64,000 bases of DNA from an uncultured Erysipelotrichaceae bacterium (GTDB taxonomy: Bacteria; Bacillota_I; Bacilli_A; RF39; UBA660), in contig CACYRE010000001.1 of NCBI GenBank assembly GCA_902776735.1, positions 48,395 to 112,394 of the forward strand. The letters are read 5' to 3'. A program made the translations under genes and the position numbers. The notes beneath the pieces were generated by a model. That model saw only the letters and a program-made list of their open reading frames with translations. It was not told the DNA's origin and ran no database searches. Positions 1-43,429 of the stretch are shown here, in pieces (positions within the stretch are counted from its first letter, which is position 1; each line of letters starts with the position of its first letter).

Positions 1-2018
1 AAATCTGGTTCTTCTATATTTGTATCATCTTGAGGAATTTCTTCTTCTGGTGAAGGTTCTGATTTTTCTGGAGTAGGTTCAGAAATCTCTCCTTTATCTA
101 CCATTTTCTTTTCTTCTTCAGATGGTATTCTACCAAATCTAGTTTCTATATAAGATTTAATTATTGTATTAGTGTCATAAGGAGTATCTACTGTAGGTAT
201 TTTAGTTAAATTAATTTTTTTATCTTTAACATCTGCAGAAGGTATAGAATATAAAGTCTCATAAGTGTCTGGATTAAATACTACCTCTATATCTCCAATA
301 TTGAATTGTTCATAAGCTTCATTTATTTTTTGAGATTCTTTAATTACTCCTACTACTTCATTATCAGGAGTTGGTTCTTTTACCCATTCTTTACCAAATA
401 TCATTGCTACTACTTCATCTGTATTAGCAAAAGATAATTCATATTTATCATCTTTATTAGTAACTTCTATATTATATGGAACTTCTACAGCGAAAGCGTA
501 CATTCTATTTTGAATAGCAGGTTTCATTTCTTTCTCAGCTTTTACTTCTTTTGATAATTCTATAAACATTTTAATGTTTTCAATTTCCATTTTTAAATCT
601 AAACGATTATTAATATAATTTTCTACGGTTTCTTTTTCTGTTTTAGCTTTAGCTACTTCAGCTTCTTTAGCTTTTTCTTCTTTAGCTTCTTGAAGAAATT
701 CAGATTCTAACCATTCATATATAGCTTTTTGAGGATTTGTAGTCTTTTTAGAATATTTAGTAGTACCATTTAAATTATTTACTTTAAATTCTACTAAGTT
801 ATTGTTTACTTTTTCTAGAATTAAATTCTTTCCTATAGCAGCATCTTTAATTCCTCTAGATTCAAATTCTTTTAATATTTCAGGTGTAGAAATATCTACT
901 AAAGCATAAGAACTATTTTCGTCTATCTTACTAGAAAGAGTTTTAATATGTCCCCAGTTTTCAGAATAGTTTTCTTTTAAAGCACTATCTACTAAAGTAA
1001 GCATAGCTTCTATATCTGGAGATTGAACATCTCCATCACCTACTTGGTCTAATACAGTTACATCTTGAATTAAATAATCAGGCTCTATTTCTACATCATT
1101 TATTCTAACTATTTCTTCCTCTTTTAAATCTCCAGAATTTAGTTTTTTAGCTCTTTCTTTCATTTCTTTTTCTGTACCAAATACTAGCCATGCTTTTGAT
1201 TTTTTACCAAATATTCCCCATTCTTTACCTTTATATTTAGATGCTTCATATTCATTTTCTGATTCATTAATTGAAGATTCATTTAAATATTCTTCTAATT
1301 TATTAGCTAATTCATTATTTGTTTCTGAATCTCTAATTTCATTTAAAATTCTTTGTAAAACTTCTTTATTTTCTTCTTTATTTTCTAGCATTGCTAAAGT
1401 TTCATTATAAATCTCTTCTTCATTACCTTGAATTTCATCAAAATAATTTCCCATGTCAGAACCATAAAAATCAATAATTTCATTAGCTAAATCAGAAGTT
1501 TCTAATTTTTTATTATGTTTATCTGCCATTTTATCTTGAGTCTTTTTAGAAACTGTAATCTTTTTTAAATGACCTGTTTTTGTATCTCTAATAGATTTAT
1601 TTCCATCTTTATCTACTTCTATTTTATCAGCTTCATTTAAATCTCCAAATGGATTTTCACAGCTAAGATAATAATTATATAATTCTTCAGCATTATCAAA
1701 ATCTTCAGTTTTTCTATTATTAAAATTACCATCATCATCTTGTTGAGCATCTTCAATAAAACTATCAAAGAAATTACATACAGCTTGAGGATTTATTTTA
1801 AATGAATTTTTATAATCATTTATAAAAAGACTTCCTAGTACTATTTCTTGTCTTAATTTCCATAATTGTTCTTTAGTTAAATTATTAGGGTCTATTTTTT
1901 CAGCTTCAGTTAATTTTTTCCTCTTTCTTTTAATGGCTTCTTTTGATTTTCTTTTAATCTCAAATTCTTTTTCTAGACTTTCATTTAAAGCATTAAAAAT
2001 ATTAATATTAGTCTTCAT
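1..2018 (-). CDS. hypothetical highly acidic protein; 3' end runs off window start
   Basis: Continuous minus-strand open frame from ATG at ~2016-2018 to position 1 (checked codons at both ends; absent from ORF track only because no stop in window). N-terminus MKTNINIFNALNESLEKE carries the LNE|S leader-like motif; D/E-rich. Confidence 0.5.
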   Translation of the reverse strand, partial: MKTNINIFNALNESLEKEFEIKRKSKEAIKRKRKKLTEAEKIDPNNLTKEQLWKLRQEIVLGSLFINDYKNSFKINPQAVCNFFDSFIEDAQQDDDGNFNNRKTEDFDNAEELYNYYLSCENPFGDLNEADKIEVDKDGNKSIRDTKTGHLKKITVSKKTQDKMADKHNKKLETSDLANEIIDFYGSDMGNYFDEIQGNEEEIYNETLAMLENKEENKEVLQRILNEIRDSETNNELANKLEEYLNESSINESENEYEASKYKGKEWGIFGKKSKAWLVFGTEKEMKERAKKLNSGDLKEEEIVRINDVEIEPDYLIQDVTVLDQVGDGDVQSPDIEAMLTLVDSALKENYSENWGHIKTLSSKIDENSSYALVDISTPEILKEFESRGIKDAAIGKNLILEKVNNNLVEFKVNNLNGTTKYSKKTTNPQKAIYEWLESEFLQEAKEEKAKEAEVAKAKTEKETVENYINNRLDLKMEIENIKMFIELSKEVKAEKEMKPAIQNRMYAFAVEVPYNIEVTNKDDKYELSFANTDEVVAMIFGKEWVKEPTPDNEVVGVIKESQKINEAYEQFNIGDIEVVFNPDTYETLYSIPSADVKDKKINLTKIPTVDTPYDTNTIIKSYIETRFGRIPSEEEKKMVDKGEISEPTPEKSEPSPEEEIPQDDTNIEEPD

Positions 2019-3606
2019 TCTCTAAGTCCTCCTCTCCATTTATATCTATATCTAAATCTATGTCTTCATCTGGTTCTATAGGAGTTTCTTCTGGTTCTTC
2101 ATTATTTTGAAGTTCTTCAGCAGCTTCAGGATTTATTTCGATTAAACAATTCATTAAATATTCTACTATAGCTTCATGGTCTGGAGTTAATTCTTCACCA
2201 TATCTAGGGTTTAGTTTATTAACTTCATCAAATGTATTAGGAAGTTTTACAAAGTCAAATCTTTGTTCTAATTCAGTTTTATGTTCATCTTCTTCTGTCT
2301 CTTCATTGTTTTCTAAATCTATTTCTTCAGCTTCTTCTAATTTATATGTAGGTCTTAATTTTTGTGCTTGTTTTATAGCACTATCTAAATCATCAAATTG
2401 AGATTGAGCTCCAGAAAATGATTTTTCATCTGAATAATATAAAGTTTGATATTTACCATTAGGTAATTTATTAATTTCTACTCTTTCATTAGAATTTTCA
2501 GGATTTCTTAAAACTTTTGCTAATTCAGCAGATTCATTTATATTACCTGATTTAAGTTTTTGTAATTCATTGGATAAGTTAATTAATTGGTCTTTTTTCC
2601 ATTCAGCATCTTTAATTAAATCTGAAATACTAGATGGAACTCCTCTTTGACCTCTCATTTCAATATAAGGTTCAACTTCTTCGTCAACATCAAAATTTTC
2701 AGCATAAGAAGAAATTTCATCTATTAATTTATTAACATCATTATTTACAATAATATCAACAAACCAGTCTTCTCCTTCTGGTGTATATTGTTGAATTTCC
2801 CAGCCAGTTTCATTTCCAGAAAAATTAACATCTTCATCTTGAATTGTAAAACCACAGTTTTCAATAATTTTCTTAGCTTTTTCTAAATCATTTGAATTAT
2901 CTTCAGCTTCATTTATATTATCAGTATCTATATTATCAGTATCTATATTATCAATTATAGGTTCTTCTTCAGGAATTTCTTCTGAATTAACCTCTTCAGG
3001 TTTAGTATCTACAAGCATTAGAACATCGTCTGAGTCTTCAGCTACTTTACCTATAATATAAATACTATTATTTAAATCTTCTTTATCTGTAATTTGATAT
3101 AAGTTTAAGTCTAAGTCTACTAAAATATCTCTAAGTTCATTTAATTCTTTATCTAATTCAGATTCTTCTTCTATAGGATTTTCTTCTTGGTCTTCTTCAC
3201 TATCTACCGTATCTTCTAATTCTTCTTGATTTTCCAAATCCTCTTCAGCTTTATCTTTTAAATCTTCAATATCATCATCTGCTTCTGTTAATTTAGCAGA
3301 TTCATTTCTTGGAGCGATAGGTTTTACATCCATTGTTAAATCTGCATGGTCTGAATTATCCCAATTTTCTTTAAATTTATTATAAATTTCTATTGCTTCA
3401 TCATCACTTGTTGCACTAAATCTTTTTACATCATTTGCATCTACAGTAATAATATAATTGTTTCCCTTAGAATCAGTTCCAAAATTAAATTTCATTAAAG
3501 ACATAAATCCGTCTCTTGCAATTTCAGTAGCATCCCAGTATTCTTCAGTAGAACCTTCTTTTAATTTTTTATTTTCAGATTCTACTAATTTTAATTTCTT
3601 ATACAT
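2008..3606 (-). CDS. hypothetical very acidic protein (D/E-rich, 532 aa)
   Basis: Long ORF, ATG at 3604-3606 preceded by GGAGA SD; extreme acidic composition; N-term contains KLVESE (LxE). Confidence 0.6.
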   Translation of the reverse strand: MYKKLKLVESENKKLKEGSTEEYWDATEIARDGFMSLMKFNFGTDSKGNNYIITVDANDVKRFSATSDDEAIEIYNKFKENWDNSDHADLTMDVKPIAPRNESAKLTEADDDIEDLKDKAEEDLENQEELEDTVDSEEDQEENPIEEESELDKELNELRDILVDLDLNLYQITDKEDLNNSIYIIGKVAEDSDDVLMLVDTKPEEVNSEEIPEEEPIIDNIDTDNIDTDNINEAEDNSNDLEKAKKIIENCGFTIQDEDVNFSGNETGWEIQQYTPEGEDWFVDIIVNNDVNKLIDEISSYAENFDVDEEVEPYIEMRGQRGVPSSISDLIKDAEWKKDQLINLSNELQKLKSGNINESAELAKVLRNPENSNERVEINKLPNGKYQTLYYSDEKSFSGAQSQFDDLDSAIKQAQKLRPTYKLEEAEEIDLENNEETEEDEHKTELEQRFDFVKLPNTFDEVNKLNPRYGEELTPDHEAIVEYLMNCLIEINPEAAEELQNNEEPEETPIEPDEDIDLDIDINGEEDLENED

Positions 3607-4051: not shown

Positions 4052-5659
4052 TTAATCTTCATAGAATAAATCTGGTGAATTATGATTTTGTATCCATTCT
4101 TCTACTATATTTCTCATATTATCATAAGTTTCTTCATTAGGTATGTCTAATTTAACATCTCTAGTTAATTCTTCTCCATCATTACCTATTGCATATATAT
4201 CAAACTTTATTATATTGTTATCTTCAAAACTTATATTTCCTACTGTAAAATCACTTCCATCAAAAGCATCTTGAATAGCTTTAACTAGATTATTACCAGA
4301 ATCAGTATTAGTATCTTCTTTTAAGTCAGTATTTTCAGATTCACTGGTGTCTTCTAATGGTTGGTCTGGATTAAATTCTTCCCCATCTTTAATAACTTCA
4401 CATCTATCTAAATAATCTTTATCAGCTTCTTCTTTGCTTTCATAAATTTCTGCATTTTCTATTTCACCTTCAGAAAGATTATAATTTTCACCTACTATAT
4501 ATCTAGTTCCTTCAGATTTATCTTCTAGCATATAAATATTACCTTGTTCTTTTACTACTTGTAAATCTTTAACTTCTGTTTGAGCAGCTTCTACTACAAG
4601 TTTCTTTTTCGTTTTTTCTGACTCAGATAACTTATTATAATCATTTATAATATCTTTATCTTTCATCCAAGTATTTCTTATTAAATCTTCTTTATCTTTA
4701 TCTGATAATGAATTATAATAACTTGGGTCATCTATTGCTCCATTATCTAATAATCCTTTTACATAATTATAAAAATCGTCATCATTTACAGGTTTCTTTT
4801 CTATTGGTTTATTTGGTCCGCCTGCTTCTTCTAAAGATTTTTCTGATTCACTATAAAACTCATTTCCGCTAGCTAATCTTTTTCCTCTTTCTATTTGATA
4901 GTTACAAGTTTCTATCCAATCATTAACCATTTGTACTGATAATTTAGCTCCAAAAGAATTAGTATCTATAGCTTCTAAAGCAGCTTTTATTGTTTCCACA
5001 TCAGAAACAAAATCTTCTGGGTCTCCACCTAATTTTTCAGAATATTCTTCTTTTAAAGATTTAGCAGATTCTGATAGATTTCCTCCAGCTTTTACTTTTT
5101 CAAAAGCTTCTTTTCCAGATGCTTCATCGTAATAATAATATCCATAATCCCAAGAAATTTCATCATTTTCTACAGTATATCCAAAAGCTACTACATATTC
5201 ATCACCCATTTTTTGAAGTTTAACTAAAGCAACAGGTTGGCCTCTTCTTTCTGTTTTGTCTAGTATTTCAGCTTTTTCTCCTAGTTTAAATCCTTCTTTT
5301 AAAGATTTAGCAGATTCATCTAAAGTATTCCATTTTTTAAGTTGGTCCATCATAACTACTTGTTTACTAGGTACTTCAACAGTTACATATTTTCCATCTT
5401 CTATTTCTATAATAGGGGCTTCTGTAAATTCTCCTGGTGTATATGAACCATATTTATATGGTACTTTTACTACATCTCCTACTTTAAAATCTTGATTATT
5501 CTCTTCTTTTAAAGGTTTATCACATTCTTGTAATTCAGATTCTAATTTTTCTACTTTAATCTTAGTACCTTCCATAAAAACTCTTTTTTTAATTTTAAAA
5601 GTTTTAGTTTCACTTTCATTAAGTTCTTTTGCTAAATTAAAACTAAGTTTATTTAACAT
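4052..5659 (-). CDS. hypothetical protein with shared 30-aa N-terminal leader (family 2)
   Basis: N-terminus MLNKLSFNLAKELNESETKTFKIKKRVFME nearly identical to adjacent gene 5675..6430; ~95 bp DNA repeat at both 5' ends. Confidence 0.65.
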   Translation of the reverse strand: MLNKLSFNLAKELNESETKTFKIKKRVFMEGTKIKVEKLESELQECDKPLKEENNQDFKVGDVVKVPYKYGSYTPGEFTEAPIIEIEDGKYVTVEVPSKQVVMMDQLKKWNTLDESAKSLKEGFKLGEKAEILDKTERRGQPVALVKLQKMGDEYVVAFGYTVENDEISWDYGYYYYDEASGKEAFEKVKAGGNLSESAKSLKEEYSEKLGGDPEDFVSDVETIKAALEAIDTNSFGAKLSVQMVNDWIETCNYQIERGKRLASGNEFYSESEKSLEEAGGPNKPIEKKPVNDDDFYNYVKGLLDNGAIDDPSYYNSLSDKDKEDLIRNTWMKDKDIINDYNKLSESEKTKKKLVVEAAQTEVKDLQVVKEQGNIYMLEDKSEGTRYIVGENYNLSEGEIENAEIYESKEEADKDYLDRCEVIKDGEEFNPDQPLEDTSESENTDLKEDTNTDSGNNLVKAIQDAFDGSDFTVGNISFEDNNIIKFDIYAIGNDGEELTRDVKLDIPNEETYDNMRNIVEEWIQNHNSPDLFYED

Positions 5660-5674
5660 AATATAAACTCCTTT

Positions 5675-6430
5675 CTATAAAGTATTTTTAATCGGAATAA
5701 TTAAATCTAAATGGTCTTGTAAATCTTGTGTATCTATTCCTCCATATTGTAAATCATTTTGAAATTCTGTTTCAGCGTCAGATTCCCAATCGAATTCAGG
5801 GTCATTTTCTTCAGCCCATTTTTTAGATTCTTCATAATATCCTAAAGCTTCTATTATTTTCTTTTCATCATCTATTAAAGTAAATAAACCAACTTCAATA
5901 CTACCATCATGGTCTGCAGCATCTAATACAAGATTTCCATTTTCAACTGAGATTTCAACTATATCCCATCTACTAATATATTCTTCAAATTCTGATATAT
6001 TTGAAAAAGTAACACCACCATTGCCAGATGGTTTAAAATCAGAATAATTAGAATTATATCCACCCATTAAATATAATCTACCAAAATTCATTTGATTTTC
6101 AATCATTGGTTCTATATTTTCTTTAAAATCATCCCAAATAAGTTCTGAATCGTCATAAAAATCAGAATTTAGCCATTCATCATAACTAGGGATTTCATCC
6201 TCATCATATCCATCAAAATTAGCTTTAATATAATCATTATAAGCTTCTTCACTAGTATCTACTTCAGAAGACCAAATTGTCTGTCTATTTTCATTTTTTA
6301 TATGAAATTCATTTAGTCTTTCTTTTCTAACTCCTGTGCTTTCCATAAAAACTCTTTTTTTAATTTTAAAAGTTTTAGCTTCACTTTCATTAAGTTCTTT
6401 TGCTAAATTAAAACTTAATTTGTTTAACAT
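5675..6430 (-). CDS. hypothetical protein with shared 30-aa N-terminal leader (family 2)
   Basis: N-terminus MLNKLSFNLAKELNESEAKTFKIKKRVFME; paralogous leader to 4052..5659, unrelated C-terminal body. Confidence 0.65.
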   Translation of the reverse strand: MLNKLSFNLAKELNESEAKTFKIKKRVFMESTGVRKERLNEFHIKNENRQTIWSSEVDTSEEAYNDYIKANFDGYDEDEIPSYDEWLNSDFYDDSELIWDDFKENIEPMIENQMNFGRLYLMGGYNSNYSDFKPSGNGGVTFSNISEFEEYISRWDIVEISVENGNLVLDAADHDGSIEVGLFTLIDDEKKIIEALGYYEESKKWAEENDPEFDWESDAETEFQNDLQYGGIDTQDLQDHLDLIIPIKNTL

Positions 6431-6443
6431 AATGTTCTCCTTT

Positions 6444-6719
6444 CTATATTTTTTCTAATATCATTCCTACAGCTGTTTTTTCTTCACCTTGTATAGATAA
6501 AATATCAAAATAAGGTCTGATTATAATATCAAACCCTGAAGGTGTAGCTAAACCTCTTGCAGAAATTACAGCTTTTACAGCTTGATTTACTGCAGGTACA
6601 CCAATACATTTTAGTTCTAATTTATCTACGTTTTTTATATTAGCATAAATTGCTGACGCTAATTTTTTAATATCAGTATCTTTTCCAACTCTAAATTCTG
6701 GTATGTTCTTTGCTTCCAT
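6444..6719 (-). CDS. spoVS: SpoVS-like protein (stage V sporulation protein S homologue)
   Basis: 91 aa; strongly resembles SpoVS core (CIGVPAVNQAVKAVISARGLATPSGFDIIIRPYFDILSIQGEEKTAVGMILE vs SpoVS GAGALNQAVKAVAIARGFVAPSGVDLICIPAF..GEERTAIKLIVE, recalled from memory); RBS AGGAGGTAAAT-ATG. Confidence 0.75.
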   Translation of the reverse strand: MEAKNIPEFRVGKDTDIKKLASAIYANIKNVDKLELKCIGVPAVNQAVKAVISARGLATPSGFDIIIRPYFDILSIQGEEKTAVGMILEKI

Positions 6720-6806
6720 ATTTACCTCCTAATCTACTATTTTTTAGCTCCTAATATAATAAATAATTAGAATGTAAAAAGGTACCAGAATTAAATCTAG
6801 GACCTT

Positions 6807-7196
6807 CTATTTAATATTTTTTAATTTGGCTTTAAACTCTACAATCTTATTTATATCATCATTATCAAAATCCTTGTATTTATCATATAATGATTTTAGT
6901 TCTTTAATTGGATAAGTACTAGTTTTATATTTTGAATCATGATAAATTTTATTTAAATATTTACATCTATTTCTATATAGTCTATAATAGTTACTATGGT
7001 TATTAGTATATTGTTCTTTACATTTTAAAGAACAATATACTTGATTACCATGTTTTTTAATAAATGATTTTTGACATTGTGGACAAACACAGACTAAACT
7101 AGCACTATAAATAATCTTATCTATCATTTTATCTACATATATTTCAATATTTTTTATTAATATTTCTTTTAATTCTTTTTTTAAATCTTCTTCCAT
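6807..7196 (-). CDS. Cys-rich zinc-finger protein (CxxC...HGN...Cx3C...H)
   Basis: CVCPQCQKSF..HGNQVYCSLKC..H pattern; possibly degenerate HNH-like, not assignable. Confidence 0.45.
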   Translation of the reverse strand: MEEDLKKELKEILIKNIEIYVDKMIDKIIYSASLVCVCPQCQKSFIKKHGNQVYCSLKCKEQYTNNHSNYYRLYRNRCKYLNKIYHDSKYKTSTYPIKELKSLYDKYKDFDNDDINKIVEFKAKLKNIK

Positions 7197-7198
7197 AA

Positions 7199-7870
7199 TT
7201 AATATCTCCTATTTAAATCTAATATAAAGTTAAATACTCTAAGTTCTGTATTATATATTGGTGATTCCATAAAATTAAATAGAGCAGGCTTTATAGAATC
7301 ATATTTAACTTTCTTAAAATCTTCTATTAATTTCTTATACCATTTAGAAATATTATTGCTAGAAAGTACTACTCTATTTAAAAAAGTTAGTAAACTCATT
7401 TCTATATATTCAGCACCTACTTTATCCAGTAATTGTAAATAAGTTTTAGATATAGTAACTGTATCAGTATTAAAACTTCTAAGAAATTCTAAGAAAGCTC
7501 CAGTATTATCATATTCTTTCATTTGCCATTTACCAGTAATCCACATATATTCTATTTGGTCTCTAAAAGTAAAATCGTCTAAATCTTGATAAAATTCTAA
7601 TAAGTATTTAGGAACTTTTCTTTTCCACTTAGAAAATACTATGTCTAATAAAGTTAATCTATCTGTTAAATCTATTTCACCTGCTGCAGATACTGATATA
7701 TAATTCACTCCTAAATTCTTAATTTTATTTAAATATTTAGTTTCACCAGTCCATATAATATTTCTATCTGATAATAATATAGGTTTATCTAAAACTATAT
7801 AATCTGGATATAAGAATTGTAATAAACCTATATCATCTATTTTTACACTATGATTTATAATACTAATCAT
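7199..7870 (-). CDS. hypothetical protein
   Basis: ORF tightly packed (3-nt gap to downstream gene). Confidence 0.5.
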   Translation of the reverse strand: MISIINHSVKIDDIGLLQFLYPDYIVLDKPILLSDRNIIWTGETKYLNKIKNLGVNYISVSAAGEIDLTDRLTLLDIVFSKWKRKVPKYLLEFYQDLDDFTFRDQIEYMWITGKWQMKEYDNTGAFLEFLRSFNTDTVTISKTYLQLLDKVGAEYIEMSLLTFLNRVVLSSNNISKWYKKLIEDFKKVKYDSIKPALFNFMESPIYNTELRVFNFILDLNRRY

Positions 7871-7873
7871 TTT

Positions 7874-10048
7874 CTACCTCTTTATATTATTTCTTTTACA
7901 ATAAACAATTATTGTACTTTTATCTCTATTTAATTTTTTAGCTATTTTTCCATAAGATATGTTTTTAATATTATTTTTTATAAATTCTTTTTCTTCTTCT
8001 GTTAAATAATTAATATTCTTTTTATATTCTATATAATTTAATCTACAATAGTTTCTTATTGTAGCTTCTGCTCTATTTAATTTTTCTATCATTTCTTTAA
8101 GTGTCATATTTTTAGCATTTTTCTTTATAAAATCTCTTTCTTCTTCTGATAAAAGTGAATAACCCCTTTTTCTTGTATGTTTATATTCTATATTATTTTT
8201 ATTATAATATTCTCTAATTGTAGCTTCAGCTCTATTTAATTTATCCATCATTTCTTTAATAGTCATATTTTTAGCATTTTCTTCTATAAAATCTTTTTCT
8301 TCTTCTGATAAATAATGAGAGATTTTTATATATTCTATATTATTTCTATCACAATAAGCATTTATTACAGACATACTTCTATTTAGTTTTTTTGCTAATT
8401 CTTTAGATGTCATAGTTATAGCATTTTTCTTTATAAAGTCTTTTTCTTCTTCTGTAAAAGGATTATAATCTTTTTTATGTTCTATATTATTTCTATAATA
8501 ATAACCACTTATTGTTGGTGTACATCTATTTAGCTTTTTTGCTATTTCTTTAATAGTCATATTTTTAGCATTTTCTTCTATAAATTTTTTTTCCTTTTCA
8601 GATAAAAAATAAAATTCTTTTTTATATTCTATATTATTTCTATCACAATAATCTCTAATTGTAGCTTCTGGTCTATTTAATTTTATTGTTAATTCTTTAA
8701 TAATCATATTTTTAGCATTTTCTTCTATAAATTTTTTTTCTTCCTCTGATAAAAGATAAATTTCTTTTTTATATTTTATATTATTTCTTTTATAATATTG
8801 TCTTATAGTATAAGGTTTTTTATTTAGTTTTTTTGCTATTTCTTTAGTTGTCATAGTCATAGCATTTTCTTCTATAAATTTTTTTTCTTCTTCTGATAAA
8901 TAAATAATTGTATGAGTGTTTTCTTTAATTAAATTTATTAAATTTTCTTGTTTTGTATAGATTTTTAATTTTTCTTTCTTCTTTCCTATTTTAATATCAG
9001 AAACTTTTATATTTCTTTTTTTAGCAAAATTTTCCCAAATAGATATATAACCACTATCTAAATTATATGCATTATTAACTAAATCAAATACTATAGCATC
9101 TTCTCTATGTTCTGAAATTATTCTACCTAATTGTTGTTGATATATAATATTACTTCTAGTTTTTCTTAAGAATACTGCTACATCTATATTAGATAAATGT
9201 ATACCTTCAATAAACATATTTACTGAATATAATATATTTATTCCTTTTTTAGAATTATAAAAATCATTTAATATTTGATTATTAAGTTTATTAGATTTTT
9301 TAGAATGTATATCAAAATTATTAACATCTCTATCTATCCATAATTTTATAAAATTTTTTGCTTGTTCTATATCATTAATTCTAGATACAAATACTATAAT
9401 ATGAAGAGGTTTACTATAATCTATAAATTCTTCAAATATATTTTTTACTTTAGTATTTATATCATAATTAGATAATTTCTTTTGCAAAGCTTTATTTTTA
9501 TAATATCTATAATCTATTTCATAAATAGAAGAAACATATTTTATTTGAGGTAATATTCCTCGTTCTATAGATTCAGCTAAATATAAAGGTTCTATTTCTT
9601 CATTATTAAATATTAATTCTATAGGATTCTTACCATCCATTCTTTCAGGAGTAGCACTAAATCCTATCATTTTACCTTTATAATCTTCTAAGTCTTTCTT
9701 TAATATATTACCCCATTTTTCTGTAACTGACCTATGCATTTCGTCTAAAAATATATAGTCATAATCTAATAAAGACTTATGATTAAAATTTTGTTTTAGT
9801 AAATTACTATATATTATAAAATCTGTATTATTATAATTTCCAAATTCTTTAATATATTCAACAATATTATCTCTAGGTTCTATAATAAGTTTCTTTCCTA
9901 GAAGCTCATCACATAATTCCATTATAATATGAGATTTACCAAAACCTACTGGTCTTACTACACCAAATTTATCACAAGTCTTTAATTTTTCTAATATTAA
10001 ATTTTTAGTCTTTATTCTTTCTATAGATAGTAAACTTTTATCAAACAT
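7874..10048 (-). CDS. SF2 helicase-like ATPase fused to eight tandem helix-turn-helix repeats
   Basis: Walker A VGFGKSH, DExH-like FLDEMHR, SATP motif, QQLGRIIS; C-terminal 8 x ~46-aa repeats LSEEEKxFIEENAKNMTIKEIAKKLNRxxxTIRxYxxRNNIEYKK (HTH-like); promoter TTTACA-N17-TATAAT upstream. Confidence 0.7.
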   Translation of the reverse strand: MFDKSLLSIERIKTKNLILEKLKTCDKFGVVRPVGFGKSHIIMELCDELLGKKLIIEPRDNIVEYIKEFGNYNNTDFIIYSNLLKQNFNHKSLLDYDYIFLDEMHRSVTEKWGNILKKDLEDYKGKMIGFSATPERMDGKNPIELIFNNEEIEPLYLAESIERGILPQIKYVSSIYEIDYRYYKNKALQKKLSNYDINTKVKNIFEEFIDYSKPLHIIVFVSRINDIEQAKNFIKLWIDRDVNNFDIHSKKSNKLNNQILNDFYNSKKGINILYSVNMFIEGIHLSNIDVAVFLRKTRSNIIYQQQLGRIISEHREDAIVFDLVNNAYNLDSGYISIWENFAKKRNIKVSDIKIGKKKEKLKIYTKQENLINLIKENTHTIIYLSEEEKKFIEENAMTMTTKEIAKKLNKKPYTIRQYYKRNNIKYKKEIYLLSEEEKKFIEENAKNMIIKELTIKLNRPEATIRDYCDRNNIEYKKEFYFLSEKEKKFIEENAKNMTIKEIAKKLNRCTPTISGYYYRNNIEHKKDYNPFTEEEKDFIKKNAITMTSKELAKKLNRSMSVINAYCDRNNIEYIKISHYLSEEEKDFIEENAKNMTIKEMMDKLNRAEATIREYYNKNNIEYKHTRKRGYSLLSEEERDFIKKNAKNMTLKEMIEKLNRAEATIRNYCRLNYIEYKKNINYLTEEEKEFIKNNIKNISYGKIAKKLNRDKSTIIVYCKRNNIKR
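7900..9000 (-). repeat. eight imperfect tandem ~138-bp repeats encoding the HTH repeat array
   Basis: Protein-level 46-aa repeats within CDS 7874..10048. Confidence 0.6.
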
Positions 10049-10083
10049 AGTTAATATCTCCTGATAATAAAAATTCTATCTAT

Positions 10084-10112
10084 ATTATATCATAAGATTT
10101 TATAAATGTAAA
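10084..10112 (-). promoter_or_regulatory. sigma-A/sigma-70-type promoter TTTACA-N17-TATAAT (extended -35 TTATTTACATTT)
   Basis: Minus strand TTATTTACA|TTTATAAAATCTTATGA|TATAAT, ~25 nt upstream of SD for helicase-HTH gene. Confidence 0.7.
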
Positions 10113-10121
10113 TAAGAAATT

Positions 10122-10478
10122 TTAATATGGTTCATAAGTCCACACATTTGGAATTTCAAATATACCACTATATAACATCTTTTCCCAATTATGAGCTATT
10201 CTTATTTCTCTTATATAATCACTATATTTACCAGATAAAACATCTTTCATAGATAATTGTTCTTTATCATTTATTAATATAATATCATCATATAAATCGT
10301 CTCTATCTTTATCTTGTTCTGTTTTATATAATGAAGAAGTTAGAGCATGAGTTTGAGTAGTTACTATTAAGTCATCTCTTCTTTTAATAGCTTCTTTTAA
10401 TGATTGAGCTGTAAGACAACAAATCTCTATATCTTCTGCTGGAATTTCTTTAGTTAAATAAATCTTAATTAATCTCAT
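10122..10478 (-). CDS. hypothetical protein
   Basis: ORF in array. Confidence 0.45.
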   Translation of the reverse strand: MRLIKIYLTKEIPAEDIEICCLTAQSLKEAIKRRDDLIVTTQTHALTSSLYKTEQDKDRDDLYDDIILINDKEQLSMKDVLSGKYSDYIREIRIAHNWEKMLYSGIFEIPNVWTYEPY

Positions 10479-11010
10479 TCTTTTCTAATCCTCCTATTAT
10501 TTGAATAATTTTATCTTTATTCTTTCTTACTTCCATCATTTTATAATACATTGCTAAATCTGGACAATGACTTGCTATAAAGTTATCTAATTCTAATCCA
10601 GTTAGATTTCTTTCATCTATATATTCTTGAGCATCTAATATTGGAATAAAATCACATTTAAAATCTAAATCTTTTGGATATTTTATATAAGTTTTAATTC
10701 TACTTTGAAGTGGTACTGAAACATTATCCTCAGAAGCTAATAATATTAAAGGTAATTTAATTTCTTCTACTAGCTTTAATAATATTGTATCTCTATATAA
10801 AGCTGATATATCTTCTATTACTATAGGCTTATTATATTTAACTCCATAAAAATTGGTAATTAATTCTTTAGCATCTTCAGTATTATAAATCTTATAAATG
10901 TTTCCTTTATAAATCATCTTAAATAAAATAGCAGCTCCTCCTACTAATAATACTGGAGTTTTACCTTTTATATCTTTTAAAGTTTGATAAATATAATCTA
11001 ATCTTGTCAT
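10465..11010 (-). CDS. hypothetical protein
   Basis: ORF overlapping neighbours by a few nt (operon-style). Confidence 0.5.
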   Translation of the reverse strand: MTRLDYIYQTLKDIKGKTPVLLVGGAAILFKMIYKGNIYKIYNTEDAKELITNFYGVKYNKPIVIEDISALYRDTILLKLVEEIKLPLILLASEDNVSVPLQSRIKTYIKYPKDLDFKCDFIPILDAQEYIDERNLTGLELDNFIASHCPDLAMYYKMMEVRKNKDKIIQIIGGLEKNEIN

Positions 11011-11312
11011 TTTCTTAATTCCTTTATAGCTTTATTATATTCTTCTTTTAATATAGTTTCTCTATTCTTTAAGTCTAATTCTTTTCTAGCTTCTTTATAA
11101 GTACTAAATAATCTATGTTCTTTATAAGTATTAAGTCCACAAGTAGTTCTATCTAAATCTGATTTATTTATGCCTTTAAATCTTACATAATATAATTTAT
11201 GCCAATCGCTATAATTACATATTCTACATCTTTCTATATGATGTACTATTTTATTATTTTCTTTATGATATTTTATAATATATACTATGTCTCCTATATT
11301 AAATGTGTTCAT
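11007..11312 (-). CDS. hypothetical protein
   Basis: ORF, 4-nt overlap with downstream gene. Confidence 0.45.
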   Translation of the reverse strand: MNTFNIGDIVYIIKYHKENNKIVHHIERCRICNYSDWHKLYYVRFKGINKSDLDRTTCGLNTYKEHRLFSTYKEARKELDLKNRETILKEEYNKAIKELRK

Positions 11313-11490
11313 TATTTAAATCCTCTTGATTTTGATTTATATTATTACTAGTAGTTGTATAAGTATAAGTATTTCTTCCTTGTCCTCCACAAGGACACAT
11401 TATAGTATTTGGAGATAATATATTTTTACATATAGGACATTGCCAACCTTGTGGTACTATTCCAAAAATTTCATAATTATTTACTTTCAT
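11299..11490 (-). CDS. small zinc-ribbon protein
   Basis: CPICKN...CPCGG motif; RBS AAGGAGGG upstream. Confidence 0.45.
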   Translation of the reverse strand: MKVNNYEIFGIVPQGWQCPICKNILSPNTIMCPCGGQGRNTYTYTTTSNNINQNQEDLNNEHI

Positions 11491-11528
11491 AATTAAACCC
11501 TCCTTTATTTATAATTATGCAAAATAAA

Positions 11529-11549
11529 AAGGAGGGTTTAAACCTCCTT
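11529..11549 (-). terminator. intrinsic terminator hairpin (AAGGAGGGTTTAAACCTCCTT palindrome + T-run on minus strand)
   Basis: Perfect 8-bp stem, followed by TTTTTATTTT on minus strand after gene 11612..12331. Confidence 0.6.
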
Positions 11550-11611
11550 AGCACAAGTCCTATAAAATAGGATGCACCTCTATATCTAGTAGTGGAGAAT
11601 AGTCCACTTTA

Positions 11612-12331
11612 CTAGCTATTTGATTGATTTTCAAGCTTCTTTTTAATTTCTTCCATTGATAAACCATTTATAAGACCATCTCTAATTTCTTCCATTTGAT
11701 TACTATCAAATTCTGGTTTAGCATAAGTTAATACTTGTTCCATAGATAAATCATAAAAACCGTATCTAATTTGTCTCATTTGATATTTATCAAATTCTGG
11801 TTTAGCATAAACCTGTATTTCTTCCATAGACAAGTTACGGTCAAAACCATTTCTAATTTCTTCCATTTGTTCACTGCTAAATTCTGGCTTAGCATAAACT
11901 TGTACTTCTTCTATAGATAAACCATCATAAAAACCATCACTAATTTTATCCATTTGATTTTCATTAAATTCTGGTTTAGCATAAACTAATACTTGTTCCA
12001 TAGATAAACCATTTCTAAAATCTACTCTGATTATATGCATCTGGTTTTTATTAAATTCTGGTTTAGCAAATAATAATACTTGTTCCATAGATAAACCATT
12101 ATAAAATCCATTTCCAATTTCATACATTTGACCATTATCAAATTCAGGTTTAGCATAAACTTGTACTTCTTCCATAGATAAGCCATGTCTAAAGCCATTT
12201 TTAATTTCATTCATTTGCCATTTATCAAATTGTCCACTTTCTTCGCACTGTTTAATAAAGTTATCTTCTGTAGTCCCTTCATTTAAATTATTTTGAATAC
12301 TTTCTAATAATTTCATTGTATCATTTTTCAT
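11612..12331 (-). CDS. leader-bearing repeat protein (family 1 leader MKNDTMKLLESIQNNLNE; 7 x ~33-aa repeats)
   Basis: N-terminal 18 aa identical to 12336..12719 (57-bp identical DNA); body is 7 tandem repeats GFxxGLSMEEVQVYAKPEFxxxQMxxI. Confidence 0.65.
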   Translation of the reverse strand: MKNDTMKLLESIQNNLNEGTTEDNFIKQCEESGQFDKWQMNEIKNGFRHGLSMEEVQVYAKPEFDNGQMYEIGNGFYNGLSMEQVLLFAKPEFNKNQMHIIRVDFRNGLSMEQVLVYAKPEFNENQMDKISDGFYDGLSIEEVQVYAKPEFSSEQMEEIRNGFDRNLSMEEIQVYAKPEFDKYQMRQIRYGFYDLSMEQVLTYAKPEFDSNQMEEIRDGLINGLSMEEIKKKLENQSNS

Positions 12332-12335
12332 ATTT

Positions 12336-12719
12336 TTACCTTCTTAATATTTTTAATTGTTCATTAGCACATTGGTCTAACAAATCAATAACTTCTTCAA
12401 TAGATACACCTGTTTTTTCTTTTCTGTTGATTGCTTTATTGTCTTTTATAATATCTACATAAATATCATAATCATCACTGTGTTTATTATATCCAATAAA
12501 ACCTAGTCTTATAGAAGTACCACCAGATATATAACCTTTACTATCATATATATCAGCAGCAAATCCAATATTTCCTGTACCAGTATCATATTGATAAACA
12601 AATTTATATACTTTATTTATTGTAGAAGTTAACATAGATATAAATTGTTCTTTATTTATATCACTCTCATTTAAATTATTTTGAATACTTTCTAATAATT
12701 TCATTGTATCATTTTTCAT
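12336..12719 (-). CDS. leader-bearing protein (family 1 leader MKNDTMKLLESIQNNLNES)
   Basis: Identical leader to 11612..12331, unrelated body. Confidence 0.6.
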   Translation of the reverse strand: MKNDTMKLLESIQNNLNESDINKEQFISMLTSTINKVYKFVYQYDTGTGNIGFAADIYDSKGYISGGTSIRLGFIGYNKHSDDYDIYVDIIKDNKAINRKEKTGVSIEEVIDLLDQCANEQLKILRR

Positions 12720-12776
12720 AATAATATTCTCCTTTTTTAATATTTTCTAATATTATATATAAAATTAATACTAATT

Positions 12777-13583
12777 TTAATCTAATTCTTCAGACCTTAT
12801 AGTAAACTCACCATCAAATTCTTCATTATATTCGTCTGGATTTATTCTTTTATATTTACCTGTCATAGTATTCTCTATTTCAACCATAAAACCATTCATT
12901 AATTTGTCATGAGCAAATAAAGTAGCTTCAGTCCAGTCATTAGTTTTTAATTCATCTTCTGTATCATGTAATTTATAATCATAATAAGAGCATACGATAT
13001 ATTTTGTATCATTACTAATTTCATTTAAACTACTTTGAATACTTTCTAATAAATTTCTAGTTTTACTTCTAAATTCAATAGATTCATTTACATTAGATAA
13101 TCCTAATTTCTTTTCAACAATTTCTTTATGATTATCATGTATTTTACCTTCATTATATAAATTTTCTAGAGTTTGTTTTAATATATCAACATCTTTAGAA
13201 AATACTTGAATTATTTTTTTTGGACTTCCTTTTGTTTTTCTATATGGAAGACGAACACTTCCATAAGCCATATATTGATTATCTGGAATAGTTGTAATAG
13301 AATTTTGATTAACTTCCATTATTAAAGTATCAGGTAGTTCTAAATCATCTGTTAATTTTGGATTATCTCCATAAACATTCTCACTTTGATAAATTGCAAA
13401 ACCAACATGTAGAATATCATTTCCAGCAATTCCATTTATAAATTCACTTTGATTCTCTCCTAGATATAATCTAATAAAACAAGTATCTCCTCCTAAAGCT
13501 CCTAAAGATATGCTTATTCCACTATTAGGAAATCTTTGTTTATATGCATTTTCTATTTGAGATTTAAACTCACCATAAGTCAT
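12777..13583 (-). CDS. two-domain protein with internal family-1 leader-like segment (RNLLESIQSSLNEIS at ~aa 170)
   Basis: Internal copy of LLESIQxxLNE motif between two domains; RBS AGGAGGAAATAAAAAATG. Confidence 0.6.
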   Translation of the reverse strand: MTYGEFKSQIENAYKQRFPNSGISISLGALGGDTCFIRLYLGENQSEFINGIAGNDILHVGFAIYQSENVYGDNPKLTDDLELPDTLIMEVNQNSITTIPDNQYMAYGSVRLPYRKTKGSPKKIIQVFSKDVDILKQTLENLYNEGKIHDNHKEIVEKKLGLSNVNESIEFRSKTRNLLESIQSSLNEISNDTKYIVCSYYDYKLHDTEDELKTNDWTEATLFAHDKLMNGFMVEIENTMTGKYKRINPDEYNEEFDGEFTIRSEELD

Positions 13584-13597: not shown

Positions 13598-15634
13598 TTA
13601 TAATACTTGAATAGCTCCAGTAGATGCAAAATAAAATCCACTAAAATCTAAGTCTCTACCTAAAGCTCCATAATCAAAATAATCAGATAAATCATTTCCA
13701 TCTGCAATATCTATTTCTAATTGTTCTTCTACTACAGAGTCTAACCATTCTTCTACTAGGTCATAAAATTCATCACTACCTTCATCTATATCTGGGTTAT
13801 CATCTCTTACAGATTCTTCAGCTGCTTCTCTCCAGCTTTCTCTATAAGCTTTTTCATCAATATAATTTTCTTTATTAGCTACTCCTTCAAAACCTCCAAT
13901 CATATCTACCCAGGCTTCACCTAATTCTTCTTCAGTTTCTACTCCTGGAAAGAATATATAATCCCCAGATTCTAATATATCCATACAAGTATCAAAATCA
14001 TCATTTTGGTCTTCCATTATAGCAGTAAAAGCAGCTCTTTCATCTTCTGATAATTCTTCAATCTTTTCAAGCTGTTCAATAACTACCCAAGGATTTGAGT
14101 ATTCATCTATAGTAAAAGGAATATCTCCTTCAGTATCATTTATAAATGGTTCTTCATCTTTATGTGCTTCTAAAAATTCTTTAGCTTGTTCTAATTTCAT
14201 CCAACCACCATTTATTTGTTCTACATCTGCTCCATTTTCATTATAATTTCCCCAAGTATTCATAAATAATTCAATATTTAATGGATTATATTCTTCTGTT
14301 AATAAACCTTTTTCTATACTATCTTTTCTTACATTTTCTAAACTAGATTCTTCTAATTGACTTAATTTATCCATTAGAAAATCTCTTTTAGACTCTAAAC
14401 CAGAAATATTTTTATTTGGGTCAGAATTTGCTATACTATCTTGTACTTTTTCTAATTCTTTCTTTATAGTTTCAGCATAATCTTTTCTTGTTTTATTTGA
14501 TACTGATTCAGACAACATATCATAAACTTCTTGTGTTTCATATCTTATTATATGTTTTCCATCTTTATCAGTTCCATTATACATAGGACCTAAATAACCT
14601 TTAAATTGTAATTGATTATCTAATTCTTCTCTTGGAACTACACCACCATTATTTCTATATTTTGAATTATCAGGAGATAATTTATCTTCTTTTATTGGTA
14701 ATTTTTCTGCTTCTTCTCTTGTATAAGTTCCAGCATAATCACCACCAACTAATTGATAGACATAATTATTATAATCAGCCTCTTCATTTAAAGCTGATTC
14801 ATCATATTCCTCAAAATCAAAGTTTTGATTTACTTCTTCTAAAAATTCATCTAAATAATTATCATTTACAGAATCTAAATCTGTATTTCTTAATGCAAAC
14901 ATTATTACTTGAACCATTGATTGCCAGGTTTTTGACCTATTAAAATCTTCTATATTATTAGGCATTGATGAAATAAAACCAGAACTAGAAGAATAATTTG
15001 ATTTTAAAAAGTTTTCAAATTCACTATTTGATAAAGCTTCTTTTCTTAAATTTTCATATTCATCTTGATTTACTTCTAAATTAAATTCTAGCTCGTCTCC
15101 TGAATAATTATATTGACTTGGATGATAAACTTTATTTGCTATAATTTTAGCACTTGGAAGAACTTCTTGTATTGTTTTTTCTATATATTTTGGAGCAATA
15201 TCTTCTATTATTTTATCTAATTCTTCTAATGAAGCACTATCTGGTAATCTGTCACTTAAAGAATACATATCAACATTTATTATTGGAAGTACCCCAGTAT
15301 TTAAATCTATATCTAAATTAGCTCCAGATTCATTTAAATTAGATTCATCTAATGATATACTTCCATAACCTTTATATTCTTCATATCCTTGGTCTTTTAA
15401 TTCTCTTGCTTTTTGTCTTAATGCTTTGCTTGTTAATTTTTTATGTTTATTTAAAGGCATTGTTTGACTATTAACAAATTGAAATTGTTTAGTTTCATTA
15501 TTTATAATTAAACCTAAAATACTAAAGTTAAATTGATTTTTAGACACATAGGTTTCGTCACCAGATAACATTTTTTTGTCATCTTCTTTTAAATTTGCTT
15601 GAATATTTTCAAATAACTTTTTTGTTCCTGACAT
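13598..15634 (-). CDS. large leader-bearing protein (MSGTKKLFENIQANLKED)
   Basis: 678 aa; N-terminus fits family-1 leader consensus; RBS AGGAGGATTAAAATG. Confidence 0.65.
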   Translation of the reverse strand: MSGTKKLFENIQANLKEDDKKMLSGDETYVSKNQFNFSILGLIINNETKQFQFVNSQTMPLNKHKKLTSKALRQKARELKDQGYEEYKGYGSISLDESNLNESGANLDIDLNTGVLPIINVDMYSLSDRLPDSASLEELDKIIEDIAPKYIEKTIQEVLPSAKIIANKVYHPSQYNYSGDELEFNLEVNQDEYENLRKEALSNSEFENFLKSNYSSSSGFISSMPNNIEDFNRSKTWQSMVQVIMFALRNTDLDSVNDNYLDEFLEEVNQNFDFEEYDESALNEEADYNNYVYQLVGGDYAGTYTREEAEKLPIKEDKLSPDNSKYRNNGGVVPREELDNQLQFKGYLGPMYNGTDKDGKHIIRYETQEVYDMLSESVSNKTRKDYAETIKKELEKVQDSIANSDPNKNISGLESKRDFLMDKLSQLEESSLENVRKDSIEKGLLTEEYNPLNIELFMNTWGNYNENGADVEQINGGWMKLEQAKEFLEAHKDEEPFINDTEGDIPFTIDEYSNPWVVIEQLEKIEELSEDERAAFTAIMEDQNDDFDTCMDILESGDYIFFPGVETEEELGEAWVDMIGGFEGVANKENYIDEKAYRESWREAAEESVRDDNPDIDEGSDEFYDLVEEWLDSVVEEQLEIDIADGNDLSDYFDYGALGRDLDFSGFYFASTGAIQVL

Positions 15635-18311: not shown

Positions 18312-18605
18312 CTAATTTTCTACTAGTTCTAAATTTATCGTTGTTCTATTATGATATTCGTTAGTTACTCTCATTTCTGTTACTAAAAAATTTTTAGTAT
18401 CTTTTTTAACTTTATGATTTTTTGTATAACAGAAATTAATTTGTATAGGTTCACTTACTGGATACATATTCGGCCAAATATTAATTTCACTGTGTTTATT
18501 TTTATAATATCCTTTTATTTTCTTTTTAGGTTTATCTGATTTGTAATTATATTTAATATTTGATACTTTTGCTAACATATAATAATCCTTTCTCTGTAAT
18601 TTCAT
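18312..18605 (-). CDS. hypothetical protein
   Basis: ORF; partially overlaps phosphoesterase gene 3' end in track, true extent uncertain. Confidence 0.35.
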   Translation of the reverse strand: MKLQRKDYYMLAKVSNIKYNYKSDKPKKKIKGYYKNKHSEINIWPNMYPVSEPIQINFCYTKNHKVKKDTKNFLVTEMRVTNEYHNRTTINLELVEN

Positions 18606-19098
18606 CTAAAGATACTGGATAATAATTCCAATTATCAACACCTACATTAAACCTATTATCTCTATGCAATTCAGTTTTATAACTATGTAAATGTCCATGT
18701 AAATGAATAGAACCATATTCCATACCATTCCAATTTTCTATAGGATAATGACATAAAACTATATCTTTTCCTCGGTCTTTTATTTCTTTATAATAATCTA
18801 TACTTTCAAACAGTCTAGGATTAAAACTTTTTCTATCTACCCAAGAGTCATGATTTCCTCTAATTAAATGAATTTTACCATTTAATTGTTTTATAAAGCT
18901 CATTAATATATCTATTGGAAGAGAATTACCTACAAATGCAAAGTCTCCTAAAATATAGACATCATCATTCTGTTCTATTTTACTGTTCCAATTTTTTATT
19001 AATTTTATACTCATCTCATGTACATCTATAAAAGGTCTATTTTCATATTTAATTATATTTTTATGACCTAAATGTAAATCCGCAGTGTAGTAAATCAT
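18553..19098 (-). CDS. calcineurin-like metallophosphoesterase; start refined to internal ATG at 19098
   Basis: Motifs DLHLGH, GDFAF, GNHD, HGHLH; SD GGAGAAAATAAA-ATG at 19098; ORF-track start 19137 lacks RBS and would overlap upstream gene. Confidence 0.75.
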   Translation of the reverse strand: MIYYTADLHLGHKNIIKYENRPFIDVHEMSIKLIKNWNSKIEQNDDVYILGDFAFVGNSLPIDILMSFIKQLNGKIHLIRGNHDSWVDRKSFNPRLFESIDYYKEIKDRGKDIVLCHYPIENWNGMEYGSIHLHGHLHSYKTELHRDNRFNVGVDNWNYYPVSLDEITEKGLLYVSKSIKY

Positions 19099-19099
19099 T

Positions 19100-42456: not shown

Positions 42457-42457
42457 T

Positions 42458-42944: not shown

Positions 42945-42947
42945 AAT

Positions 42948-43424: not shown

Positions 43425-43429
43425 ATATA

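Follow-up and report, generated by a model that had tools for sequence, protein, structure and literature searches.

A superfamily 2 helicase-like protein with a tandem array of seven helix-turn-helix units, encoded by an uncultured large phage

Tethered translocases of helicase superfamily 2 (SF2), such as XPB in TFIIH, the type I restriction enzymes and ISWI/Chd1, are central to DNA opening, looping and remodelling, and normally need multi-subunit assemblies. The SF2 branch of XPB, SauUSI, HsdR and RadD comprises duplex-DNA translocases and helicases, and members of this clade characteristically act while tethered by a separate DNA-recognition part: XPB is held by TFIIH, HsdR by the methyltransferase core and SauUSI by a target-recognition domain; ISWI and Chd1 represent a working design in which an SF2 translocase is combined with a helix-turn-helix (HTH)-type anchor. 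Here we describe a gene (hereafter helicase-HTH) on the minus strand of a 64,000-nucleotide stretch of contig CACYRE010000001.1 (positions 48,395 to 112,394; hereafter the window), which is part of a large phage genome of roughly 125 kb. The encoded protein joins an SF2 motor to a string of HTH units, and we put at about an even chance that it is a replication, recombination or repair translocase-helicase held on duplex DNA by its multivalent HTH array.

The closest described systems share parts of this plan. SauUSI (PDB 7clg) has a PLD nuclease and a DUF3427 target-recognition domain, XPB an N-terminal damage-recognition domain, and RadD a Zn finger and an SSB-binding tail, whereas the window protein has none of these; compared with SauUSI, XPB/Rad25, HsdR, RadD and UvsW, its tether is an HTH array within the same chain. 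Array-less siphophage helicases of about 455 residues have a core of the same subfamily (22-29% identity over residues 30-330) in a replication-module context, whereas the window protein adds a seven-unit array of 343 residues. The Myb/SANT arrays (R1R2R3 of c-Myb; SANT-SLIDE of ISWI/Chd1) also consist of tandem three-helix units of about 50 residues, but in the window protein the Myb threshold of Pfam is not reached, tryptophans at regular spacing are missing and the units number seven; moreover, the motor of ISWI/Chd1 is of the Snf2 type, whereas that of the window protein is XPB/ResIII-like. Herpesvirus UL9 is likewise a viral replication protein in which an SF2 helicase is combined with a DNA-binding region at the C-terminus. 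It binds DNA through one unrelated domain, whose cognate boxes in the origin are known, whereas in the present family the number of units is variable and neither the window nor 13 related loci yielded cognate sites. Homing endonucleases (I-TevI, I-HmuI; NUMOD/HTH modules) also carry small DNA-binding modules strung on short linkers, but their catalytic partner is a nuclease, whereas the window protein has a helicase and no nuclease domain. Finally, the HA-domain helicases (PF03457) follow the same plan, a ResIII plus Helicase_C core and then copies of a small helical domain thought to be DNA-binding; Mills et al. 2013, a reference in PMC12191111, state in their title that the HA domain binds DNA. 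The HTH unit of the window protein is not detectably related to HA, and homology to PF03457 was ruled out, with no Pfam match and an hhalign probability of 0.5% against P0032, a distant relative that carries HA domains.

The general plan, a helicase of this clade with C-terminal strings of HA/PF03457, Myb or NUMOD domains, is already in the databases. An earlier note on this DNA, written from the sequence alone, knew of no described protein of this architecture; our literature search likewise found no paper describing an SF2 helicase with a tandem HTH array, but the architecture turned out to be common in metagenomic phages. What is notable here is the length and plasticity of the HTH array and the spread of the array module in phage dark matter.

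Architecture of the motor and the HTH array

The gene, its parts and its putative expression signals, all on the minus strand, are the following, with open reading frame abbreviated as ORF and isoelectric point as pI.

7874..10048, minus: complete gene for a predicted SF2 helicase/translocase with an HTH array (ORF list; 724 residues plus stop)
9059..10048, minus: SF2 motor core, residues 1-330, two RecA-like domains (Pfam, AlphaFold2 (AF2), Foldseek, profile)
9932..9946, minus: motif I / Walker A, GFGKS, residues 35-39 (read from the sequence)
9734..9745, minus: motif II, DEMH, residues 102-105 (35-sequence alignment)
9650..9658, minus: motif III, SAT, residues 131-133, inside GFSATPER (35-sequence alignment)
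9122..9136, minus: motif VI, QQLGR, residues 305-309 (35-sequence alignment)
8906..9058, minus: predicted small basic post-core domain or linker, residues 331-381, pI 10.1 (AF2, pI)
7877..8905, minus: array of seven predicted tri-helical HTH units, residues 382-724 (repeat detection, profile, AF2)
10058-10062, minus: AGGAG ribosome-binding site in the 73-nt gap upstream of the gene
10084..10112, minus: candidate sigma-70-like promoter TTTACA-17-TATAAT with an extended -10 TG (11/12 positions match)

In the AF2 model, which was built from the family alignment with a mean predicted local distance difference test score (pLDDT) of 85 and mostly 85-95 in the motor core, the two RecA-like domains (residues 1-330) are followed by the small basic domain (helix 334-344, strands at about 351-365, helix 368-378) and by seven separate three-helix bundles. 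The motor core, which the earlier note had taken to fill the N-terminal ~400 residues, is shorter, with about 330 residues and then the 50-residue small domain. Pfam assigned Helicase_C to residues 205-310 and gave a weak DEAD match, and relatives also match ResIII. The top Foldseek matches in the PDB were RadD, archaeal XPB/Rad25, SauUSI and UvsW, with a probability of 1.00 across 365-398 columns, while the family profile matched the PDB sequences of SauUSI (7e-37), XPB (6e-20, core only) and type I HsdR (7.5e-15) and, more weakly, of RadD (2e-13) and UvsW (8e-8). The best predicted viral structures were 'SSL2' SF2 helicases of uncultured phages and a Lactococcus phage helicase, and further matches came from giant-virus SF2 helicases, poxvirus A18-like helicases and QP509L of African swine fever virus. 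By profile and predicted fold, the motor is assigned to the XPB/SauUSI/HsdR/RadD clade, the XPB/ResIII branch of SF2. It is neutral (pI 6.7), and the ~30 residues before Walker A leave no room for an XPB-type N-terminal damage-recognition domain; a PLD nuclease and DUF3427 were absent from the window protein in the Pfam scan, the likeness to SauUSI being carried by the motor.

All conservation figures for the motor come from a family alignment of 35 sequences. The Walker A, DEMH, SAT and Q-GR motifs recognized in the earlier note survived this alignment, mostly as invariant or at least 90% conserved positions, and SF2 motifs I, Ia, II (DExH), III, V and VI, represented by GFGKS, P58, DEMH, SAT, EGxH and QQxGR, are near-invariant or invariant. 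Invariant motor residues are G37, K38, P58, D102, E103, H105, E281, G282, H284, R295, T297, S299, Q305, Q306, G308 and R309, together with D322, V324, N325 and N326 of an FDLVNN block (residues 321-326) just before the post-core domain. In the motif III region, A132, T133, P134 and R136 are at least 90% conserved.

The repetitive C-terminus was detected by Tandem Repeats Finder (TRF) as a 147-nt period of 6.9 copies at 7883-8908 (score 861), by a direct-repeat search as seven copies with spacings of 147, 159, 147, 147, 147 and 147 nt, and by a unit-profile search as seven units at residues 382-430, 431-479, 480-528, 529-577, 578-626, 631-679 and 680-724. This is a tandem array far beyond chance. 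The earlier note was right that the array exists, but counted eight repeats of 46 residues over ~370 residues; there are instead seven of 49 residues, with one spacing of 53, in an array of 343 residues.

8759-8905, minus: unit R1
8612-8758, minus: unit R2
8465-8611, minus: unit R3
8318-8464, minus: unit R4
8171-8317, minus: unit R5 (followed by a 12-nt spacer)
8012-8158, minus: unit R6
7877-8011, minus: unit R7

A single unit, modelled by AF2 from an alignment of 50 units, folded with a pLDDT of 93 into helices at positions 5-17, 20-27 and 31-40. Its fold matches were all HTH, comprising engrailed and other homeodomains (template modelling score about 0.6, root-mean-square deviation 2.7 Å, 48 residues) and the HTH domains of RcsB, DesR, DosR, GerE, LasR and Lrp/AsnC; individually these Foldseek matches were non-significant (E above 0.1), which is to be expected of a unit of 49 residues. 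Compared with PDB sequences over positions 2-38, the unit profile matched the 2lvs HTH (1.9e-5) and DesR (4.5e-4), and also IclR, RhlR and RcsB. HTH_17, HTH_38, HTH_11, GerE and Phage_terminase (HTH) were above the Pfam cut-off in the window protein, with Sigma70_r4_2 just below, and the units also matched Tc3 HTH. The scan of the window protein gave no match to PF00249 (Myb_DNA-binding), a family present in some relatives and stand-alone arrays, and the unit profile aligned to the Myb-type repeats of the distant helicase relative P0031 (E 3.6e-5, probability 71%). On the basis of these profiles and models, the units are classed as tri-helical HTH modules of the homeodomain/Myb/LuxR kind. The HTH resemblance of the repeats claimed in the earlier note is thus borne out by Pfam families above their cut-offs and by the three helices of each modelled unit, and so is the overall architecture of an SF2 ATPase with an array of DNA-binding-type HTH modules. 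A coiled-coil reading of the repeats, named in that note as one of the outcomes that would speak against it, was ruled out, each unit being modelled as a compact three-helix bundle.

The array is basic (pI 9.4, net charge +21), and units 1 and 7 are the most basic (+6 and +7). Entropy over the 50 units outlined a conserved scaffold (L3, E6-K8, F10, I11, N14, M18-T19, E22, L27-N28, I34, Y37 and N41-I43), with peaks of variability at positions 30-32, 35, 36 and 39, which correspond to the start and the exposed face of helix 3. The gene region (8001-10000) has the lowest G+C content of the window (19.9% vs about 25%) because of the repeats rich in K, N, I, E and Y. The candidate promoter, the best minus-strand match in 5500-12800, lies in the same 73-nt gap as the ribosome-binding site and is merely suggestive, because such sites occur at chance density in AT-rich DNA (73 found vs 66.6 expected).

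Relatives and turnover of the array

The full-length protein has 44 relatives at E <= 1e-5, about 30 of which join the same core with HTH units. All of them are unnamed at source, and relatives of the array are called 'hypothetical protein' at most. One relative of the full-length protein (P0001) is identical to it and was found on contigs reaching 124,920 nt in length, and a further one (P0002) has 82% identity. Scans of IMG/VR and GTDB located the full architecture on contigs of 120-132 kb, among them two phage-genome-like contigs of 132.5 kb from 'Bacilli bacterium' metagenome-assembled genomes of goat duodenum; low-GC 'Bacilli' of the ruminant gut are candidate hosts. The same architecture is found in unrelated phage lineages with GC contents of 42-44% (L008-L010) and 32% (L032/L033), and the fusion is conserved across lineages; hundreds of array-less core homologues were also found in Clostridia and other genomes.

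The number of units found by the unit-profile search ranges from 2 to 9 across the family, and close relatives with about 80% identity in the core have 2, 4 and 7. P0002 has seven units with one-to-one counterparts for units 1, 2, 6 and 7, P0003 has four units, and P0004, complete at 477 residues, retains only the counterparts of units 6 and 7. In more distant proteins, the units resemble those of their own protein more than those of other proteins, and therefore repeated local expansion or homogenisation is indicated. Nonsynonymous (dN) and synonymous (dS) divergence was estimated by the NG86 (Nei-Gojobori) method between the window gene and its 82% orthologue (L005). The motor core gave dN 0.033, dS 0.177 and dN/dS 0.19, and the array dN 0.167, dS 0.229 and dN/dS 0.73, a dN that may be inflated by mis-registered or gene-converted repeats. 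These estimates suggest a motor core under purifying selection and an array that evolves much faster, the best conserved units relative to L005 being 1, 6 and 7.

Other modules occupy the same place in other relatives. L032 carries a true Myb array on the same helicase core (PF00249, 1.4e-32), the cores of the distant P0032 and P0033 carry HA domains, an I-HmuI NUMOD-like module is added to the helicase of L010, and P0038 and P0039 carry NUMOD modules. The helicase C-terminus thus appears to be an exchangeable DNA-binding cassette, because Myb arrays or NUMOD-like modules take the same place elsewhere. In sister helicases on 42%-GC contigs (L010 177-2087; L009 9887-11746), the I-HmuI NUMOD-like module closes an HTH array of three to four units; this module of homing-endonuclease type matches PF22083 at E 1.9e-5, just below the cut-off, and other relatives carry NUMOD1.

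An exhaustive search with the array yielded 710 cluster representatives at E <= 1e-3 and 98 at <= 1e-10. Among the best 164 matches, 18 have the helicase core and most others are stand-alone arrays of 2-10 units, and a LAGLIDADG_3 homing-endonuclease domain was found in 3 of the 21 array relatives having large extra regions. Matches to PHROG families were to 'HNH endonuclease' and 'transcriptional regulator' families, the best being phrog_323 (3.6e-45). Among cultured phages, the array matched only small proteins of the jumbo phage Goslar, an Escherichia phage (NC_048170, L004). The two matched proteins are gp118 and gp119, the latter bearing the annotation 'SANT/Myb domain protein', and their genes belong to a run of small adjacent genes (118.6-121.4 kb) beside an NAD-dependent DNA ligase. 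The annotation of gp115 reads 'weakly similar to transcriptional regulator'.

Genomic setting and repeats in the window

The window has a GC content of about 25%, all but one of its ORFs of at least 90 residues lie on the minus strand, and its GC skew is uniformly negative. The following genes make up the setting discussed here.

13598-15634, minus: ArdA-domain protein, 678 residues (C-terminal PF07275, 30.5 bits vs cut-off 27)
18553-19137: metallophosphoesterase
19468-20844: ATP-dependent DNA ligase
26956-28470: SNF2-like helicase
30134-32713: PolA
35560-36990: DnaB-like helicase

Helicase-HTH lies about 9-10 kb from the ligase gene and in the same strand-block as the SNF2-like helicase, PolA and DnaB-like helicase genes, and endolysin-like and tail-like proteins are encoded further along the window. 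In five related loci, at about 38-42% identity, ligase, metallophosphoesterase and further conserved genes come directly after helicase-HTH. In L003, L006, L007 and L056 (about 38-42% identity), the order is helicase-HTH, ligase, phosphoesterase, w16782-like, w10465-like, w7199-like and SpoVS-like, and in the window and its closer relatives helicase-HTH is placed between the w10465-like and w7199-like genes. The conserved order across relatives therefore shows that the linkage is to replication and repair genes. Scans of neighbouring genes, both in the window and in related loci, revealed no recognizable terminase, and a megablast search of 25 kb of the window against cultured phages gave no match. 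The nearest cultured-phage relatives of the core are array-less 'DEAD/DEAH box helicase' proteins, for example of Lactobacillus phages phiadh and vB_Lga_AB1 and of Streptococcus thermophilus phages; these 455-residue siphophage helicases share a replication module with flanking genes for an AAA ATPase, DUF669 and a primase.

Beside helicase-HTH, a SpoVS-like protein of 91 residues is encoded at 6444-6719 (minus; phrog_35646 1e-14, PF04232 in relatives). Its gene directly follows the w7199-like gene in L001, L003, L006, L007 and L056 (38-55% identity) and in L005, and its small product may be a nucleic-acid-binding partner within this module. In the window, the two genes are separated by an ORF of 129 residues (6807-7196, minus) that has a zinc-ribbon of the form CxxC...CxxC and weakly matches an HNH-endonuclease PHROG (2.6e-4); this ORF is absent from the relatives L001 and L005 and may be a mobile insertion. 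The N-terminal 470 residues of the ArdA-domain protein have no family assignment, and an impression that ORF 10465-11010 encodes a clamp-loader subunit found no support in searches.

Repeats that could serve as iterons were searched for as exact k-mers of 9-12 nt with at least two G/C and at least four occurrences within 600 nt, a search that covers about half of the genome and would miss degenerate, AT-only or non-identical composite sites. Across the 64-kb window, clustered k-mers were confined to three coding arrays, namely helicase-HTH, ORF 11612-12331 and ORF 51002-52606, and whole-window direct-repeat and TRF scans agreed in finding coding repeats only. The large intergenic gaps at 32981-33655 and 42373-43429, among five intergenic regions scanned, contained no repeat families, and TRF within 10 kb on either side of the gene in 13 related loci gave nothing convincing. 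The search for iterons proposed in the earlier note was therefore negative, both outside the three coding repeats in the window and near the gene in the related loci.

The other coding repeats were noted in their own right. ORF 11612-12331 (minus, 239 residues) consists of tandem repeats with a period of 87 nt or 29 residues in about 6.7 copies (LSMEEVQVYAKPEF..QM..I..GF) and matched no informative family. The neighbouring ORF 12336-12719 (minus) begins with the same 54 nt (MKNDTMKLLESIQNNLNE) as this ORF, and a third copy, 76% identical, is located at 13021-13074. ORFs 51002-52606 and 56285-57037 (both minus) have 72-nt (24-residue) tandem repeats in common; their homologues in related loci match DUF285, a Mycoplasma-type leucine-rich repeat, and ORF 24044-24826 gives a weak DUF285 match. 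Proteins with such repeats may have a surface or receptor-binding role and are a possible hint of a low-GC Bacilli/Mollicutes-like host. The 1-kb gene-free stretch at 42373-43429 contains one tRNA (42948-43027, Rfam 44.7 bits), for which ARAGORN gives a four-base 'gtat' anticodon, a length of 80-82 nt and no assignment, and a second T-arm/acceptor-like fragment occurs near 43380-43430 (AGGAGTCGAACCT vs AGGATTCGAACCT).

Possible roles and significance

The explanation that we favour is that helicase-HTH encodes a phage DNA-dependent ATPase serving the phage's own replication, recombination and repair programme. The string of seven modules would be a multivalent DNA anchor that makes many weak contacts with little or loose sequence preference, and the tethered motor would pump or unwind neighbouring DNA, acting alongside the adjacent ligase and phosphoesterase. 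The DNA transaction thus served might be the opening, branch-migration or clearing of DNA at forks, D-loops or nicks. The array presumably binds DNA, and it would act mainly by avidity rather than by reading a specific site, because 2 to 9 units are tolerated, evolution is fast, no iterons were found, and the end units are basic and conserved. The motor is likely to be an anchored translocase, because XPB in TFIIH, HsdR, SauUSI and ISWI/Chd1 on SANT-SLIDE are analogous. A role as the replicative helicase is unlikely, a separate DnaB-like helicase gene being present.

Several observations weigh against this explanation. The second arginine of motif VI (GRxxR) is missing in the window protein, and given this absence the catalytic vigour is uncertain as judged from the sequence; the HTH-array relatives inspected (P0025-type left out) also lack this arginine, with GRIIS, GRVIA, GRAIN etc. 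in its place. Several internal units are neutral or acidic (R2 -1, R5 -3), the exposed face of helix 3 carries acidic residues, an unusual feature in a DNA reader, and the variability of helix 3 would equally fit a diversified sequence-specific recognition. A cognate site array elsewhere in the roughly 125-kb genome is possible, the window being about half of it. In the flanking ORFs searched against PHROG, Pfam and PDB sequences, which include 7199-7870, 10465-11010, 16782-17882, 4052-5659 and 2008-3606, only SpoVS-like, metallophosphoesterase, ArdA and ligase were recognized, and helicase-HTH is the last recognisable DNA-metabolism gene before a possibly structural block, for which the evidence is thin (a tail-sheath match at E = 0.025).

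Two of the alternatives, an origin-binding initiator and a transcription factor or remodeller, we regard as unlikely. A UL9-like origin-binding initiator, whose array reads a composite or repeated origin site while the motor melts DNA for loading of the DnaB-like helicase, would fit an SF2 motor with a DNA-binding-type C-terminus in a replication-gene neighbourhood, and an anchored XPB-like translocase is a plausible DNA-melting device from what is generally known of TFIIH; with a conserved scaffold and a hypervariable helix 3, the units could read different subsites and so escape repeat searches. However, neither the 64-kb window nor the vicinity of the gene in 13 related loci revealed an iteron or site array, array-less homologues sit in ordinary siphophage replication modules, and the units fall from 7 to 4 to 2 among close relatives in an array with a dN/dS of 0.73, whereas a site-matched reader would be expected to be constrained. 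A fixed design of one module per iteron is unlikely, because the unit number varies from 2 to 9 in the family, and from 2 to 7 at ~80% core identity. The origin- or iteron-binding initiator suggested in the earlier note accordingly lacks support, with no iterons, a variable unit number and a separate DnaB-like helicase. In a transcription factor or remodeller, the array would bind promoter or upstream DNA, or RNA polymerase in the manner of sigma region 4, and the XPB/A18-like motor would open promoters or release transcripts in a late-gene switch. This is consistent with the matches of the units to Sigma70_r4, GerE and LuxR models and to the 'transcriptional regulator' family phrog_323, with a clade that includes XPB/SSL2 and viral fold matches that include poxvirus A18-like transcription helicases, and with a gene at the boundary between DNA-metabolism genes and a possibly structural downstream block. 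However, the names of the PHROG and Pfam families stem from the generic HTH fold and not from any tested function. Ligase and phosphoesterase are the neighbours that are conserved, the close homologues without an array belong to replication modules, and no repeated upstream motif was noticed, though no systematic promoter-motif search was made.

Decidedly doubtful is a conflict factor, in which the fast-evolving array would be aimed at DNA of foreign or host origin or at a protein of the host, for anti-defence, superinfection exclusion or host-chromosome takeover, with a restriction-like motor. Among PDB sequences the motor comes closest to that of SauUSI, a type IV restriction enzyme, and next to HsdR, the array combines an elevated dN/dS with copy-number turnover and is of a family common to homing endonucleases, and the ArdA-domain protein is encoded about 4 kb away; but Pfam detected no nuclease or other effector domain, synteny with replication and repair genes is stable in relatives down to about 38% identity, and mis-registered or gene-converted repeats may have raised the dN/dS. 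Of similarly low probability is a modular DNA-reading code, in which the scaffold is conserved and the start and exposed face of helix 3 are hypervariable, so that shuffling, gain and loss of units would re-address an XPB-like DNA-opening motor to new long composite sites; it would be a phage equivalent of zinc-finger or transcription activator-like effector (TALE) arrays, joined here to a translocase and put to further use in homing endonucleases. A packaging or pac-site recognition factor resembling the terminase small subunit, also proposed in the earlier note, is very improbable. One HTH unit does reach the cut-off of the Phage_terminase small subunit HTH (PF10668, 23.0 bits vs 22), and there is precedent for recognizing pac DNA by multivalent HTH binding (PMC4737164), but this match is a single one of over 25 generic, mutually overlapping HTH matches and involves only the HTH part, the motor is an SF2 helicase and not a terminase ATPase, no terminase large subunit was recognized among the neighbours scanned in the window or related loci, and the gene is linked to DNA ligase and phosphoesterase instead of terminase. 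The residual probability falls to an ATPase-impaired scaffold or to an alternative that we did not consider.

On the favoured explanation of a translocase-helicase anchored by its array, the family unites motor and anchor in one polypeptide with natural variants of 2 to 9 units, and would offer a compact model for how tether valency sets translocase processivity or DNA-opening power. The array itself is a widespread unannotated module, occurring alone, on helicases, on homing endonucleases and in the nucleus-forming jumbo phage Goslar. If the units prove to be sequence-specific and modular, they could be of engineering use; if not, the finding would mainly mean better annotation of a dark-matter phage clade.

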